This document shows positions 4,100-21,104 of a stretch of DNA of 46,037 nucleotides, piece after piece (within the stretch, counting starts at the first letter, position 1; each line of letters opens with the position of its first letter). Location: the sequence record PQ850598.1. One strand, written 5' to 3'. Origin of the DNA: Escherichia phage ClaudiaMuster_Bas77. The notes under the pieces are model-generated. The model was not told the origin of the DNA. It worked only from the letters and a program-made list of their open reading frames with translations, and made no database searches. Both the position numbers and the translations under genes were made by a program.

Positions 4100-4348
4100 A
4101 TGATAGGGATAATTCTTACTCTTATCGTTACGGCGTTCTTTGTTTATATCCTGATAAGACATCAGCTTGTTTATATTGCCAGAGGAAGATTCATAAACTA
4201 CTTCTATACAGAAGACCATAATGGATATGCAGCCGGCAAGATATTCCATGAGTCGCTACCAAGCTACGATGAGATGCTGTGGAAATTCTGGGTGTGGCCT
4301 CTGTCAAAATTCTATCCGGCGTACAGAAATCGAAATCGCAATAAGTGA
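4100..4348 (+). CDS. small membrane protein (82 aa)
   Basis: Track ORF 4055..4348; ATG at 4100 (MIGIILTLIVTAFFVYILI) preceded by GGTGGAG; one clear TM helix. Confidence 0.5.
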   Translation: MIGIILTLIVTAFFVYILIRHQLVYIARGRFINYFYTEDHNGYAAGKIFHESLPSYDEMLWKFWVWPLSKFYPAYRNRNRNK

Positions 4349-4357
4349 CCATGCTAT

Positions 4358-4388
4358 AATCCCATCCAACGTGATGGGATTTTTTATT
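4358..4388 (+). terminator. rho-independent terminator-like hairpin
   Basis: AATCCCAT ... ATGGGATT stem followed by TTTTTTATT, just upstream of portal start. Confidence 0.5.
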
Positions 4389-4396
4389 GGTGACAT

Positions 4397-5809
4397 ATGT
4401 CAAAAATTGATGCATTAAACGCCTATATACGCGACCGCGTGGCGAACAATAACCGGGCGCTTCAGCAGCAGCGGCTTTGTGCTGGCGGGAAGAATCTGGA
4501 CCAGAAACGTGAGTTCATGTGGAAGGAACTGGGCTACCCGCAGGAAATAACCGCCGAGATGTTCCGCTATGCATACGAGCGACATCCAGCCGCCGCCGCT
4601 GGCATTAACCGCATTATTAATAAATGCTGGCAGAAATACCCAGAAGTGGTTGAGGATGGCGAGGATGACAAGAACTCAACGTCGTGGGAGCTGTCCATCA
4701 ACGACATGATGAAGCGCGCCTACCCGTTCATCAAGGAGGCTGACAAGCGCAACGCCATCAACCGCTATTCCGCTGTTATCCTGCAAATCCGTGACGGCAA
4801 ACAGTGGAGTGAACCGGTAGACATCACCAAAACACGCCGCATTAAAGATAAATCCATTGTTCGCTTTATCCCAGTATGGGAAGAGCAACTCCGCGTCAGC
4901 GCATGGAATAACGATGAAACAAGTGAAGACTACGGCATGCCTGAGATGTACGAATATCAGGAAAGCGCCGTAGAGGATTTCGATAGCGACGGCAAGCCTG
5001 AGCGTTCCGTGCAGATTCATCCTGATCGCATTATCATTCTGGCAGAGGGTAGCTTCGATGGCAGTATGTTCAGTGGCATCCCGATGCTACGTGCTGGCTA
5101 CAACAGCCTTATCGACATGGCTAAGGTTTCCGGTAGTTCAGCAGAAGGCTTCCTGAAGAATGCCAGCCGTCAACTGGCTGTTAACTACACGAAGGACAAC
5201 GTAACGCCAGCAAGCCTTGCACAGTCAATGGGTGTATCTCAGGATGAGCTTATTGACATCATGAATGACAATATCGAGATGCTGAATTCTGGCATTGACG
5301 CTGCACTATTTAGCATGGGCGCCGAGACTCAGGTGTTATCCGTAACGCCAGCTGACCCGAAACCAACATGGGAAGTGGCTGCCAACCAGTTCGCTGCATC
5401 AATGGCGCTTCCGTTCACCGTCATTTTCGGGCAGCAAACCGGACGCCTTGCGAGTGATGAAGACAAGATGCAGGAGGCGATGACTGCCAAGCAGCGCCGA
5501 GAAACATGGGTGGATTATGTTATCTCAATGTTCGTTGAGCGCATGATTCAGTTCGGCATCGTCGATAAAGCACCGGCAAATGGCTACAAGGTTAAGTGGG
5601 ACGACCTGCTTGCTCCATCAGAGCTGGATAAGGCGGAGTTGCTGTCTAAGCTCGCCACTGCGAACAAGTCGTTCTTTGATGCTGGTCAATCTGCGTTGCT
5701 TACCGTCGATGAGGCTCGCGGCATGGTTGGTATGGAGCCGATTGAACTTGATGAAAGTTATCGCGAAGACACGCCACCGGAAGATGAAAATGAAGATACT
5801 CCGGTTTAA
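4397..5809 (+). CDS. portal protein
   Basis: 470-aa ORF following terminase, acidic C-terminus ([14 protein letters not shown]), overlaps start of Mu F-like head morphogenesis gene; size and position typical for a portal. Confidence 0.8.
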
Positions 5810-8199: not shown

Positions 8200-8478
8200 A
8201 TGAAACTATCGCAACGCGGCATGGAGGTGTTTGGAATTACCGATGCCGTAGATATATCGCCTTACATCACCACTGAGACAACACAGAATCAGTTTGATGC
8301 GCTGACAAGCCTTGCCACCGACATCGGCATTGACTCGTTCCGCAAATCAACGCTTCTGAAGAAACACAATCTCCGCTGCTTCTCATGTGTCGTCGCGCAT
8401 TTCATCGTGTGGGGTGAGAAGACTGGCGACAAAGCAAAACGCAAGGCTGAAAAAGAGGTTTACTGGTATGGCTATTAG
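8200..8478 (+). CDS. hypothetical protein (92 aa), first gene of lysis operon
   Basis: Track ORF with AGGAGG-like RBS; no TM helix, so not an obvious holin. Confidence 0.5.
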   Translation: MKLSQRGMEVFGITDAVDISPYITTETTQNQFDALTSLATDIGIDSFRKSTLLKKHNLRCFSCVVAHFIVWGEKTGDKAKRKAEKEVYWYGY

Positions 8479-8932
8479 CAAAAACATGAAGGCGTTTCTG
8501 GATATGCTGGCGTACAGCGAGGGCACTGATAACGGGCGGCAGAAAACCAATAATCATGGTTATGATGTGATTGTTGGCGGCTCACTGTTTACCGACTATT
8601 CCGATCACCCGCGCAAGCTGATTAGCCTGCCTAAGCTGGGCATCAAATCCACTGCCGCCGGGCGCTATCAGGTGCTGGCTAAATTTTATGATGCGTACAA
8701 AAAGCAACTGCGCCTGCCTGACTTCTCCCCCGCGTCACAGGACGCTATCGCAATGCAACTAATCCGTGAATGCAAAGCCACCGCCGATATTGAGACTGGT
8801 CGCATTGCTGATGCTATCCATAAATGCCGCTCCCGCTGGGCTTCATTACCGGGCGCTGGCTATGGTCAGCATGAGCAGAAGCTGGATAAGTTGATTCAGG
8901 TATACAAAGAGGCTGGCGGAGCTGTGGCATGA
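8468..8932 (+). CDS. endolysin, lambda R-like lytic transglycosylase
   Basis: Track ORF 8387..8932; ATG at 8468. KAFLDMLAYSEGTDNGRQKTNNHGYDVIVGG...FTDYSDHPRK...WASLPGAGYGQ matches lambda R as recalled from memory. Confidence 0.85.
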   Translation: MAISKNMKAFLDMLAYSEGTDNGRQKTNNHGYDVIVGGSLFTDYSDHPRKLISLPKLGIKSTAAGRYQVLAKFYDAYKKQLRLPDFSPASQDAIAMQLIRECKATADIETGRIADAIHKCRSRWASLPGAGYGQHEQKLDKLIQVYKEAGGAVA

Positions 8933-9168
8933 AAAAGCTAAGCAACTGGCTGCTCGGCGCGTGGATTTCATTCTGCTCACTATTGCAGCTATGGCCTGAT
9001 GCAATGATGCACGTGTGGGTAATGATGCCGGACGACCTGAAAGCGGCGCTACCGCCAATCGTGGTCAAAGGTGTAAGCTACTCCATCATGCTGGTTGGTA
9101 TTCTCGGAAAAATGCACGGCATGAGGAAGGAGAACCGGAGGCTGCGCAATGATGTCAATTCTCGCTAA
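8929..9168 (+). CDS. putative holin (two TM helices)
   Basis: 79-aa ORF between endolysin and spanins; TM segments LLGAWISFCSLL and SYSIMLVGILG, basic C-terminus. Confidence 0.5.
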   Translation: MKKLSNWLLGAWISFCSLLQLWPDAMMHVWVMMPDDLKAALPPIVVKGVSYSIMLVGILGKMHGMRKENRRLRNDVNSR

Positions 9169-9640
9169 ATACTGGCGACCACTGGCAATTATTATAATTG
9201 TTGTCTCTGGCGCGTTGTGGGCGCGTAGCGAAATCATCAGCTACGGCGACCAACGATACGCAGAAGGCAAATCCCAAGCAATCGCCGAACAGAAGGCCGC
9301 AGACGAACAAGAGGAGCAACGACGCAATGCAGAACTGCAAAAGATTCAGGCTGACGCACAGCAAAGGATTGACGCTGCGCGCAATGATGCTGTCAATGCT
9401 GCTGCTAAGTCTGGCAGGTTGCAGCAACAGCTCGCAAATATCCGCAAGCAGCTCGTCGGATATTCCACCGCTGAGTCCATTGGCAATCCAGCCGCAGAAA
9501 CCGGAGTTTTGCTTGGAGACGTGCTCGGCAAATCTGTCGAAAGAAATCGACAACTGGCAGATTATGCTGACAGGGCAAGAGAGGCAGGATTAGCGTGTGA
9601 GGCGCAGTATAATTCGCTGCGTAATAAAAAAGCCCCGTGA
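9149..9640 (+). CDS. i-spanin (Rz-like)
   Basis: N-terminal TM helix (PLAIIIIVVSGALWA) followed by Q/A/E/R-rich coiled-coil; last gene of lysis cassette. Confidence 0.7.
   Translation: MMSILAKYWRPLAIIIIVVSGALWARSEIISYGDQRYAEGKSQAIAEQKAADEQEEQRRNAELQKIQADAQQRIDAARNDAVNAAAKSGRLQQQLANIRKQLVGYSTAESIGNPAAETGVLLGDVLGKSVERNRQLADYADRAREAGLACEAQYNSLRNKKAP
9384..9593 (+). CDS. o-spanin (Rz1-like), embedded in +1 frame of Rz
   Basis: Internal ATG in track ORF 9198..9593; lipoprotein signal MMLSMLLLSLAGC (lipobox LAGC) then Pro-rich periplasmic segment; wholly inside the Rz gene. Confidence 0.65.
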   Translation: MMLSMLLLSLAGCSNSSQISASSSSDIPPLSPLAIQPQKPEFCLETCSANLSKEIDNWQIMLTGQERQD

Positions 9641-19283: not shown

Positions 19284-19481
19284 TCATTCACCACTTTCTT
19301 CTAACAATTGCTCATAATATGCGACGTATTCATTAGCCAGATGGTACAGGCGATCAGCAGACTTGCGTTCTGCATTGCTTAAGTCATCAATAGACTCAAT
19401 GTTGCCAATTGCATCAACACAATCATTGAAGTCTTGCTCCGTGTTACGGAATCTACAGTAGGACATGTTTGCCATAATCAC
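19284..19481 (-). CDS. hypothetical acidic protein (65 aa)
   Basis: Track ORF. Confidence 0.5.
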   Translation of the reverse strand: MIMANMSYCRFRNTEQDFNDCVDAIGNIESIDDLSNAERKSADRLYHLANEYVAYYEQLLEESGE

Positions 19482-19738
19482 TCCTCGTCACCCTGAAAAA
19501 TACCGCCAAACTCTTCAACCAGTTCATCAATGCATTCGTCCGCCTCAGCGCAATTGCCAGCGGCACTCAGCAGAATATCAACAGCCTCATCGTCAGGAAT
19601 GTTGATTGCCGAGAAGAACTCAACAATGCACATTTTCACAACCTGATATTCACCTTCTGTCTGGCAAGATGCGAAACTGCAAGCGACCGCATCAATCAGC
19701 TTGGCTTTGTCATCACTTGGGTTATCAATATCAAACAT
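19478..19738 (-). CDS. hypothetical acidic protein (86 aa)
   Basis: Track ORF; first gene downstream of the minus-strand promoter; GAGGTGA RBS. Confidence 0.5.
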   Translation of the reverse strand: MFDIDNPSDDKAKLIDAVACSFASCQTEGEYQVVKMCIVEFFSAINIPDDEAVDILLSAAGNCAEADECIDELVEEFGGIFQGDEE

Positions 19739-19778
19739 TTCATCACCTCTAACATTTATTGTTGTTTCTACGTCACTA

Positions 19779-19830
19779 ACTATAAACGCACCATCAATCT
19801 ACGTCAACAGGAATATGCTAAAATCATGCT
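19779..19830. promoter_or_regulatory. divergent promoter region (minus: TTGACG-17-TATAGT) with motif copies
   Basis: On the minus strand, TTGACG (rc of 19802-19807), 17-nt spacer, TATAGT (rc of 19779-19784). GTTTCTACGTCA and CAATCTACGTCAA motif copies present; plus-strand TAAAAT near 19819 precedes the 19855 gene. Confidence 0.55.
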
Positions 19831-19854
19831 AATCAAAAAACAGGAGATTTGAGC

Positions 19855-19974
19855 ATGGGTTCAACAAACGGTCCTTCTCGTTCGCGCGCTACTGGAAATA
19901 CCAAAACTGGCGGAAAAACTGGCGCAGTTAAGCCGAACGGTTCCACCCGTTCACCATCGCGCGGGAAGAAATAA
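19855..19974 (+). CDS. small highly basic protein (39 aa)
   Basis: Hand-translated: MGSTNGPSRSRATGNTKTGGKTGAVKPNGSTRSPSRGKK; AGGAG RBS; stop overlaps next ATG (TAATG). Confidence 0.45.
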   Translation: MGSTNGPSRSRATGNTKTGGKTGAVKPNGSTRSPSRGKK

Positions 19975-20414
19975 TGTTCGGCGCAGACATTGCCATCATG
20001 ATCATGTATGTGCTGGGTTTTGCCTGCACGGGCATGGTTGCGTTTCTGGTGTTCATTCCGGCAATGGCGATGTCTGTGTATCTTGGATGGGTGCTTGCTG
20101 ATTCATTTCCCGCCGAATATCTGTATTACCTTGCGCAGTCTATGGTCTGGCTATTCCCGGCTATTGCACTGCGCAAAAGTACAAAAATGGCGCTCTGCGT
20201 GCTGACGATGAGCCTTTACGAAAGGCTGGTAGCGATAGAGTCATTCGTATGGGAATTTATCACGCCTGTAGAAACGCCGCTTCATGCGCAGTACGCATTT
20301 ATTATTATCGGCATCCATCTGTTCATCCTTTCCATCACTTTTAAATGGGGCGGCGAAATTGGACATTATTCTTGGCGTGGTCGCCATTGTTTTTTCGCTG
20401 ATTCAAGTCTATAA
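19974..20414 (+). CDS. integral membrane protein (about 4 TM helices)
   Basis: 146-aa track ORF with four hydrophobic segments. Confidence 0.5.
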   Translation: MFGADIAIMIMYVLGFACTGMVAFLVFIPAMAMSVYLGWVLADSFPAEYLYYLAQSMVWLFPAIALRKSTKMALCVLTMSLYERLVAIESFVWEFITPVETPLHAQYAFIIIGIHLFILSITFKWGGEIGHYSWRGRHCFFADSSL

Positions 20415-20446
20415 GTGCTGGAAACATATCATCAGCGAGACACGCA

Positions 20447-20731
20447 ATGAACGAAACACTAAGGCAGGCAGCAGAGCAAGTTATAAGCGGGACGACAGGA
20501 CAGGTGATTGACAAGGCTGGATATGCCTCCATTGGTACTGGTATTGGACTGAAAGTTGCAGAGCAAACGCCTGTCACGCAGTCTTATTTTGAGGCTATGA
20601 TTCCACACAGTCTGACGGAGTGGGCGGCAGTAGCGTCAATCCTTGGCGCTCTGTCTCTGGTAATAAAGAACCTGTTTGAAATGTGGTGGAAAGTCCGGGA
20701 GTCAAAGAGAAATGACAGCACCAACACCTGA
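20447..20731 (+). CDS. hypothetical protein with C-terminal TM helix
   Basis: 94-aa track ORF; TEWAAVASILGALSLVIKNLF helix then charged tail. Confidence 0.45.
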   Translation: MNETLRQAAEQVISGTTGQVIDKAGYASIGTGIGLKVAEQTPVTQSYFEAMIPHSLTEWAAVASILGALSLVIKNLFEMWWKVRESKRNDSTNT

Positions 20732-21104
20732 AGAACTGGTCAGCCAAATGGCGAATCGCGGAATGACCATCACCACAACAGATGCGTCTGGCATTCTGTG
20801 TCTTGTGGCGTCAATCAGTGAATGCCTTGAGCTGAACTATCCCAATGATGAATGCCGGCAAAATGCGATCATGCTGTGGGCTTCCATCCTGATTAGCGCA
20901 AATACCGCAGGGCGCTACGTCACCAGTCAGAGCGCACCATCTGGCGCATCGCAATCATTCGCTTATGGCAGCAAGCCGTGGGTGGCGCTGTACAATCAGA
21001 TGAAGCTACTGGATACGGCAGGATGCACTGGCGATTTGGTGGAAGACCCTGACGGAAGCGGTAAGCCGTGGTTTGCGGTTGTGCGTGGGAGTAAGTGTAA
21101 ATGA
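20712..21104 (+). CDS. putative head-tail connector / adaptor protein
   Basis: Track ORF 20676..21104; ATG at 20712 with GGGAG RBS; call by position between capsid and tail genes. Confidence 0.35.
   Translation: MTAPTPEELVSQMANRGMTITTTDASGILCLVASISECLELNYPNDECRQNAIMLWASILISANTAGRYVTSQSAPSGASQSFAYGSKPWVALYNQMKLLDTAGCTGDLVEDPDGSGKPWFAVVRGSKCK

Follow-up and report, generated by a model that had tools for sequence, protein, structure and literature searches.

A conserved four-gene membrane cassette

We analyzed positions 19,855 to 20,731 of a 46,037-nucleotide (nt) sequence of Escherichia phage ClaudiaMuster_Bas77 (PQ850598.1), the whole of which is referred to here as the window. This region is a conserved four-gene membrane cassette in the order p39, p146, pX, and p94, and it stands at the head of the connector and tail operon. 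We have very little doubt that all four genes are real, including pX, which is encoded in another frame across the junction of its two neighbors. The features of the cassette are as follows.

19855..19974, plus strand: p39, ATG to TAA, 39 amino acids (aa), phrog_34767
19974..20414, plus strand: p146, inner-membrane protein with four transmembrane helices (4-TM), ATG start, phrog_14688, database label "lipoprotein"
20284-20511, plus strand: alternative-frame open reading frame (ORF) as listed earlier, 75 aa, with a transmembrane (TM) helix
20347-20355, plus strand: Shine-Dalgarno (SD)-like sequence of pX, GGGGCGGCG
20359..20511, plus strand: pX, TTG start, 50 aa, MDIILGVVAIVFSLIQVYKCWKHIISETRNERNTKAGSRASYKRDDRTGD
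20447..20731, plus strand: p94, membrane protein resembling holin superfamily II, 94 aa, phrog_13738 "membrane protein"

The cassette uses three reading frames in turn (p146 in frame 0, pX in +1, and p94 in +2), and where p146 is present its 3' end runs across the ribosome-binding site and start of pX. Comparison of related loci indicates that the overlapping pX-p94 pair is the core, as it occurs in every relative, while p39-p146 is an optional upstream add-on. The PHROGs database has families for p39, p146, and p94 and none for the alternative-frame product; searches of Pfam, NCBIfam, and PADLOC returned nothing for p39, p146, or pX, and a literature search found no description of the four-gene cassette. 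All ORFs given in a preliminary description of this DNA were recovered with the composition and membrane character ascribed to them, and TMHMM gave four TM helices for the p146 homolog in the Vi II-E1 record. Between 19700 and 21100 the window shares 99.5% identity with Escherichia phage SusanneMuster_Bas79. For many siphophages of Salmonella, E. coli, and Shigella in the Skatevirus/Segzyvirus/Macdonaldcampvirus cluster the figure is 92-97%, and by these comparisons the window belongs to a Skatevirus-type siphophage. Bas77-81 have been assigned to this cluster as O-antigen-dependent small siphoviruses in the BASEL paper (bioRxiv 10.1101/2024.09.12.612763).

pX, a hidden gene across the p94 start

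The pX protein has a TM helix at the N-terminus and a charged tail at the C-terminus, and its gene overlaps the last 56 nt of p146 (+1 frame) and the first 65 nt of p94 (-1 frame). The preliminary description had noted a plausible TM helix in this frame, which is real, and its flagging of the overlap was valuable. The suggestion that the overlap reflects a frameshift or a sequencing ambiguity did not hold up, since the same layout is found in 32 independent Skate-type loci, and in 41 Roufvirus-type loci pX stands by itself, with an SD and a TTG of its own. The proposed start also had to be moved from ATG 20284 to TTG 20359: the start codon is TTG in all 76 related loci, where it follows (A/G)GGCGGCGAAA, and these 76 include the 41 Roufvirus-type (Klebsiella-phage) loci, which have neither the 39-aa nor the 146-aa gene. 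ATG 20284 was rejected as a start because it occurs in the Skate-type subgroup only and the equivalent stretch of the Roufvirus-type phages holds stop codons. In ZCKp20p, a Roufvirus-type phage with no p39 or p146, an unannotated ORF beginning TTG-MDIAIGVIVIAFSLVQVYRCWKFIIRRIINERRASARRKPDN lies between the conserved promoter region and the p94 homolog. With or without p39-p146, the pX homolog starts exactly 88 nt 5' of the p94 ATG (73 IMG/VR loci and GenBank relatives).

Selection on pX was examined with Nei-Gojobori counts over these 88 nt, which run from the TTG up to where p94 begins. The ratio of nonsynonymous to synonymous polymorphism (pN/pS) in the pX frame was 0.13 within Skate-type phages and 0.19-0.44 between clades, while the other two frames over the same segment, that of p146 included, gave values of about 1 or more. 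Engineered deletions aside, the pX ORF is intact in all natural loci examined bar one metagenomic locus, L069 (IMG/VR 3300045988_076658; loci are cited by our own L numbers), in which the pX frame continues for more than 100 codons, and this may be a frameshift or an assembly error.

Counterparts of pX were also found at greater distances. In 11 of 11 distant loci, namely the contigs of ten p94-profile matches and one cultured phage found by tblastn, the p94-like start is crossed by an ORF, in the +2 frame relative to it, whose product has a hydrophobic helix at the N-terminus and then a charged tail; the same test at random window positions succeeded in 10% of cases. A pX profile placed the ORFs at the equivalent position in L094, L093, L092, and L086 as the top four among 894 stop-to-stop segments (E-values of 2.5e-7, 1.4e-6, 5.7e-4, and 7.6e-4), and in the remaining distant loci the pX counterparts are positional and compositional analogs only. 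A tblastn search located pX in 202 phage records, where the features under the match were overlapping neighbors or "none". It is annotated in no GenBank relative inspected, including the CPT-curated phage Skate, and a single cluster carries it in a protein collection of 5.8 billion clusters. Frame-specific selection, a conserved start, and ORF integrity across lineages are the marks of an out-of-frame overlapping gene, and pX shows all three. By the comparative data, pX is thus a gene of its own, read out of frame with its neighbors, that has a conserved start and SD and is under selection specific to its frame. We also noted a terminator-like hairpin (TGGCGTGGTCGCCA followed by a T-run) at 20373-20386, inside pX and the p146 tail; terminator-like sites in the region are no more numerous than in shuffled sequence.

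p94 and the spread of the pX-p94 pair

The gene for p94 overlaps by its last 20 nt, which include the adaptor SD GGGAG, the next gene of the operon.

20712..21104, plus strand: p130, DUF7370 head-tail adaptor-like, the first true connector gene, translationally coupled to p94

From its N-terminus, the p94 protein comprises an amphipathic helix, a Gly-rich helix of weak hydrophobicity at residues 17-38, one clear TM helix at about 57-77, and a basic C-terminal tail (KVRESKRND). Helix 17-38 is predicted to be helical, carries D22-K23, and has low predicted local distance difference test (pLDDT) values, within an AlphaFold model that is of low confidence overall (pLDDT 63). The family consensus is IDKxGxxSIGxGxG ... 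(S/T)x(D/E)WAAxxSIxGxxxxIIKNxxE ... R/K-rich, a pattern that class II holins also show, with a weak Gly-rich first helix and a TM helix whose ends are amphipathic.

A search of 1.84 billion representative proteins with the p94-family profile yielded only 28 matches, about twenty of them at 21-43% identity, and the pX-p94 pair appears from these comparisons to be old and widespread. A sequence search of the PDB with the p94 profile found no match and no similarity to solved structural proteins. When 185,579 bacterial species genomes were scanned with a profile from the close alignment, two phage-like contigs were the only hits, which indicates that the module belongs to lytic phages. The preliminary description had considered membrane proteins unexpected in a connector operon, but this placement is conserved and not peculiar to one genome: in six or more lineages, with identities as low as 28%, pX-p94 immediately precedes the DUF7370 adaptor gene, which the p94-like gene usually overlaps (window group, L085, L086, L087/88, L092, and L093). 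Other settings were also found, the first two of them beside genes of cell-wall or lysis type. In L090, Peptidase_M15_4 and GTA_holin_3TM lie 5' of the module; in Paraglaciecola phage JLT2 it follows the tail fiber genes and precedes a DUF5675 "transpeptidase" and a membrane protein; in L094 it precedes the terminase genes, recalling T7 gene 17.5; and in L089 it stands alone among early-type genes. The whole four-gene cassette recurs in L090 and in JLT2 (gp27, gp28, hidden ORF, and gp29).

The optional upstream half, p39 and p146

The p39 peptide has an isoelectric point of 12.0, with 9 K/R and 0 D/E, is rich in Gly, Ser, Thr, Asn, and Pro, and is predicted to be soluble and disordered. Across 29 distinct sequences its pN/pS was 0.12 in frame versus about 3 in the other two frames, with 11/9/31 variable columns by codon position, a pattern indicating a gene under strong purifying selection. 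Its length variants (32/35/39/44/49 aa) are all in frame, and the C-terminal motif AVKPNGSxRSPxRGK(K/R) is conserved. The p39 stop overlaps the p146 start as TAATG, and in the loci compared the two genes are either both present or both absent. Beyond charge we found no support for the earlier comparison of p39 to DNA-condensing or ejected virion proteins; the gene is coupled to, and strictly co-occurs with, the 4-TM gene. In unrelated lineages as well, the 4-TM gene comes after a mini-ORF whose product is hydrophilic and usually polybasic.

L077: mini-ORF before the 4-TM gene, 32 aa
L006: mini-ORF before the 4-TM gene, 49-72 aa
L090: mini-ORF before the 4-TM gene, 34 aa, with 13 K/R and 0 acidic residues
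JLT2: mini-ORF before the 4-TM gene, gp27
L092 and L096: mini-ORF with related C-termini

The AlphaFold2 model of p146 is a helical bundle (pLDDT 77). Its sequence does not vary as far as KWGGEIG, the p146-frame reading of the pX SD and start. Past this point it diverges and varies in length, with pLDDT below 50, and residues 131-146 form a tail free of constraint, encoded across the start of pX. The "lipoprotein" label of p146 derives from a PS00013 pattern match in phage Vi II-E1, and we rejected it because the lipobox residue Cys18 lies inside TM1, is F/V/I/L in family members, and is missing in L077. No match to the p146 profile was found in a PDB sequence search, and a Foldseek search of viral structures with the model returned uncharacterized phage membrane proteins only. 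Homologs of p146 lie 5' of the pX-p94 pair in L092 and L096, and other 4-TM proteins hold this position in L090, L095, and JLT2.

Dispensability in phage seszw

Yuan et al. (PMC9825161) used CRISPR to minimize phage seszw, and from the mutant genomes that they deposited we read the dispensability of the cassette, giving all coordinates as those of the window. Examples of these records are:

MZ375309 (L005), MZ375345 (L081), and OL964752 (L083): seszw mutant genomes, protein P0051

In many viable mutants 19974-20407 has been cleanly excised, so that p146 is lost along with the pX start and TM helix. Clone 260L has lost about 19957-20428, including the p39 C-terminus, and clone 2t2 has lost 20191-20290. 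In clone 180S, which is viable and forms small plaques, an in-frame fusion p39(1-28)::p94(30-94) keeps only the TM helix and tail of p94. Thus plaque formation on Salmonella does not require p146, pX, the C-terminus of p39, or residues 1-29 of p94, which fits an accessory regulator. The p94 TM helix and tail are kept in every mutant record listed, down to 36.6 kb. As the adaptor SD lies within the retained segment, this retention does not prove that p94 itself is needed.

Resemblance of p94 to class II holins

When 24 members of the p94 superfamily were compared with the holin families of Pfam, five matched PF04971 (P21 holin S; best E-value 9.8e-4), two matched PF16080 (HP1), and one matched PF10746 (T7). 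The holin family phrog_20 matched protein P0125 over nearly the full length (E-value 1.4e-6), and two more holin PHROGs matched more weakly. In hhalign comparisons the p94 superfamily aligned with T7 gp17.5 (P of 4e-4, probability 35%) and with P21 S (P of 8e-4, probability 24%), and both matches cover the same position, the C-terminal TM helix (TM2) plus the basic tail. The best P among the 193 other window ORFs, which served as a control and include pX, Rz, the DUF7940 holin, and other proteins with a TM helix and charged tail, was 5e-3. For these comparisons, the holin alignments were built from the relatives L099-L258, and the S21 query sequence agreed with contigs of 100% identity. BLASTP aligned 36 aa of p94 with P21 S at 36% identity. 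In hhalign, the T7-type and P21-type holin alignments did not detect each other (probability 0.1%), and the p94 profile weakly detected both at the same position. Within holin superfamily II the p94 family may thus be intermediate in sequence, though the likeness probably reflects remote relationship or convergence rather than membership.

The similarities to the class II holins (T7 gp17.5, PF10746; the phage 21 S pinholin, PF04971; and HP1, PF16080) extend to a size of 76-118 aa, a weak first helix rich in Gly/Ala/Ser, a TM helix opening with (S/T)x(D/E)W, and a Lys/Arg-rich tail, and these holins give the best and only family-level sequence signals of p94. Like the window's module, T7 17.5 also lies inside a structural and packaging operon, remote from its own endolysin. 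In contrast to class II holins, p94 lacks a dual-start motif, and its first helix has a conserved Asp-Lys pair and may never insert in the membrane. The lytic setting differs as well, as a canonical lysis cassette lies elsewhere in the window.

8200-9640: canonical lysis cassette (endolysin, holin, spanins), 11 kb from p94

The p94 gene is therefore not paired with an endolysin. The endolysin of the cassette (8468-8932) starts MAISKNMKAFLDMLAYSEGTD and has no hydrophobic N-terminus, so that it is not a signal-anchor-release endolysin of the kind that would partner a pinholin, and relatives annotate it as lambda-R-type or transglycosylase.

A possible accessory lysis-timing module

Our preferred reading, which we hold tentatively and at somewhat less than even confidence, is that the cassette is an accessory holin-like module for lysis timing or membrane permeabilization. 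We prefer it because of the sole sequence signals, the architecture of the proteins, the accessory nature of the cassette, and its lysis-adjacent contexts, and because it supplies a rationale for the overlap. Under this proposal p94 would be a remote relative or analog of class II holins of the T7 gp17.5 and P21 S type, whose C-terminal TM helix and basic tail would oligomerize in the inner membrane and depolarize or permeabilize it late in infection. The pX protein would be a membrane-embedded partner or regulator of p94. Ribosomes translating pX would traverse the p94 SD and start codon, and the weak invariant TTG together with the overlap would fix the pX:p94 ratio, akin to dual-start holin/antiholin genes. 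p146 and p39 would act as additional modulators, and the cassette as a whole would be accessory to the lysis cassette at 8200-9640, tuning lysis timing or membrane energization without being needed for plaques.

There are precedents for several of these elements. In lambda Rz/Rz1 and T7 18.5/18.7, a small membrane-protein gene also lies in another frame of a neighboring membrane-protein gene, is conserved, and is routinely overlooked in annotation, and an embedded Rz1 is present in this window. Unlike Rz1, pX is not nested within a single gene but extends from the end of one gene into the beginning of the next, running through the start of its presumed partner, and it has no lipobox and is not a spanin. 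Regulated holins include the pinholin-like Gp4 of mycobacteriophage Ms6, which has the partner Gp5 with a single N-terminal TM helix, and the S105/S107 pair of lambda, while holin Y of P2 is accompanied by LysA, a non-essential, antiholin-like 4-TM protein. In these systems a small single-pass partner and/or a dispensable 4-TM protein modulates timing, with stoichiometry set at translation initiation, much as we propose here. They differ from the window's module in that we detected no sequence relationship to it, that they have no counterpart of the polybasic peptide, and that they lie beside the endolysin in a lysis cassette, whereas the module heads the connector and tail operon. In this sense the region varies two known themes, small lysis-type genes that overlap and proteins resembling class II holins, and it includes a gene that had been missed. 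A more ambitious version would have pX-p94, with optional p39-p146, as an unrecognized and widespread type of holin/antiholin device, in which the regulator is encoded out of frame across the holin start with a hard-wired ratio and the translational coupling of the unit to the adaptor gene could tie the lysis clock, or the de-energization of the membrane, to the onset of virion completion; we think this is only about half as probable as the general proposal.

Several observations weigh against a holin-like role. Every holin match is below the curated threshold, and that of p94 to PF04971 reaches 15.3 bits for a cut-off of 26 (E-value 0.021). The hhalign probabilities of 24-35% are low, and proteins consisting of a TM helix and a basic tail draw spurious similarity. 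A holin is already present beside the endolysin, and that endolysin is of the soluble lambda-R type, which is not releasable through a pinhole. The expert CPT annotation of phage Skate does not label p94 as a holin. The main conserved neighbor of the pair is the translationally coupled DUF7370 adaptor gene, which points to a morphogenesis operon rather than to lysis, and the 3' half of p94 may be kept in the seszw mutants merely because the adaptor ribosome-binding site lies inside it. With respect to pX, the comparison within Roufvirus-type phages had only 8 variable columns (ratio 1.3), too few to show selection.

Alternative explanations

The strongest competitor is a membrane module for superinfection exclusion, host takeover, or counter-defense, which like T4 Imm/Sp or HK97 gp15 would keep the DNA of secondary phages from entering the cell or interfere with some function of the host membrane so as to disable it. 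PHROGs places p94 in the category "moron, auxiliary metabolic gene and host takeover", and the cassette is dispensable in the laboratory, has its own conserved promoter region, and shifts its genomic position between lineages in a moron-like manner, with p39-p146 coming and going as a unit. T4 Imm/Sp, HK97 gp15, and Cor/Llp are likewise small dispensable inner-membrane proteins of lytic phages, some of them among structural genes. However, the four proteins match no Imm/Sp/Sie family in Pfam or NCBIfam and no PADLOC defense model, and a separate Imm-like gene is annotated elsewhere in Bas79. The reading of p146 as a lipoprotein, which would have hinted at a Cor/Llp-type function, fails with its unconserved lipobox Cys, the only family-level sequence signals are those of holins, and the module is missing from prophages and bacterial genomes. 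On balance we consider an exclusion function unlikely, if still a serious contender.

Rather less probable is the view that p39 is only a leader or coupling ORF, whose translation and not its peptide matters, as it would load ribosomes onto a poorly initiating 4-TM gene. The TAATG overlap in the Skate-type loci that have p39, the strong SD of p39 next to the weak one of p146, the presence in most lineages of a short ORF of differing sequence ahead of the 4-TM gene, and the dispensable p39 C-terminus would all be expected on this view. The pN/pS of 0.12 argues that the amino-acid sequence itself is selected, and the indels of p39 are always in frame. The polybasic, acid-free composition also recurs in non-homologous versions, such as the L090 peptide listed above and the similar gp27 of JLT2.

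We regard as quite improbable a morphogenetic role of the pX-p94 pair tied to the head-tail adaptor, for example as a membrane-anchored assembly or DNA-delivery factor, and p39 as a virion-internal, DNA-binding, or ejected protein. Such a role would account for the position of p94-like genes directly 5' of the adaptor, for the presence of the p94 3' half in every listed seszw mutant, genomes of 36.6-37 kb included, and for the extremely basic character of p39. But the module is also found apart from adaptor genes (L089, L090, L094, and JLT2), and phages stay viable when they lose pX, p146, the C-terminus of p39, or residues 1-29 of p94. Moreover, p39 follows the 4-TM gene and not the structural genes, being missing in Roufvirus-type phages with the same virion module, and the PDB sequence searches show no likeness to solved structural proteins.

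Finally, the idea that the alternative-frame ORF is not a gene, having arisen by chance, through a frameshift error in the sequenced 4-TM gene, or as the second part of a programmed-frameshift product, is extremely improbable, for although open frames of 42 codons or more that contain a hydrophobic window occur at about 10% of random genome positions, and gene callers nearly never report pX, it is already contradicted by the comparative data set out above (the identical layout in independent genomes, the free-standing form where p146 is missing, the frame-specific purifying selection, and the homologous ORFs at the same position in distant lineages), and we read no canonical slippery heptamer in the sequence 5' of pX. 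What probability the holin-like, exclusion, and morphogenetic readings leave over goes to some other function.

Genomic neighborhood and control region

In Bas79 the region is preceded by a leftward early-type operon (ParB-like, methyltransferase, and RusA) and opens a rightward operon running on to the neck, tail-completion, and major tail genes. The intervening control region of the window contains the following.

19739..19854, no strand assigned: divergent intergenic control region, holding the TCTACGTCA repeats, the leftward promoter, the candidate rightward extended -10, and the p39 SD
19767-75 and 19798-806: two copies of TCTACGTCA
19807-19802 (-35 TTGACG) and 19784-19779 (-10 TATAGT), minus strand: leftward sigma-70-like promoter, from the sigma-70 scan
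19816-19824, plus strand: candidate rightward extended -10, TGcTAAAAT
19842-19846, plus strand: p39 SD, AGGAG, 8 nt 5' of the p39 start

The preliminary description had placed p39 as the first gene after a promoter. The plus-strand gene is real, but the rightward promoter before it is putative only, as a simple sigma-70 scan of the control region found the leftward promoter alone and did not detect a rightward one. Positions 19736-19809 are 88% identical to Klebsiella phage ZCKp20p, which also carries TGaTAAAAT. The 9-mer TCTACGTCA occurs in 7 copies in the window versus 0.19 expected (8146, 10991 on the minus strand, 19767, 19798, 38073, 40442, and 44532 on the minus strand), the majority of them intergenic and near operon starts, and often within caaTCTACGTCAa. 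Its reverse complement, TTGACGTAGA, includes a -35-like TTGACG. From its distribution TCTACGTCA looks like a phage promoter or regulator-binding element common to the lysis, replication, and membrane-cassette operons. An Rfam search of the region found no RNA family.

Identity to Bas79 begins sharply at 19736, a mosaic junction located precisely at the divergent promoter region. To the left of it, at 19478-19738 on the minus strand, lies a gene for a very acidic 86-aa "anti-restriction" protein (phrog_14587) that is also present in LPSTLL and seszw, and in its place Bas79 has a 207-aa gene. In Klebsiella phage vB_Kpn_ZCKp20p (NC_071149, L004), a gene for a TnpB-family RNA-guided endonuclease is inserted at 4188-5318, on the opposite strand, within the head-tail/minor capsid gene block of this lytic phage. 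The lysis cassette of the window contains a 92-aa lysozyme-family fragment, the lambda-R-like endolysin, a 79-aa DUF7940 holin, and Rz with embedded Rz1. The 92-aa fragment (8200-8478) matches Pfam Phage_lysozyme positions 55-114 of 125, seemingly without the N-terminal catalytic part, and overlaps the start region of the endolysin; it could be a remnant or a non-catalytic partner.

Significance

These results point to a conserved protein-coding gene that was overlooked in about 200 sequenced phage genomes, among them those of Skate, the curated type phage, of Bas78-81 from the BASEL collection, and of a phage that had served for genome minimization. The published seszw "gene 20" deletions also removed this second, unannotated gene, pX. 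Four "hypothetical/membrane/lipoprotein" entries become a single cassette that ranges from enterobacterial phages to a marine Paraglaciecola phage, and the propagated "lipoprotein" annotation of p146 does not stand. The idea of a holin-like function is testable in genetically tractable phages. If it is true, the cassette would represent a new way to encode a lysis regulator and would account for membrane proteins heading a connector operon in these phages.

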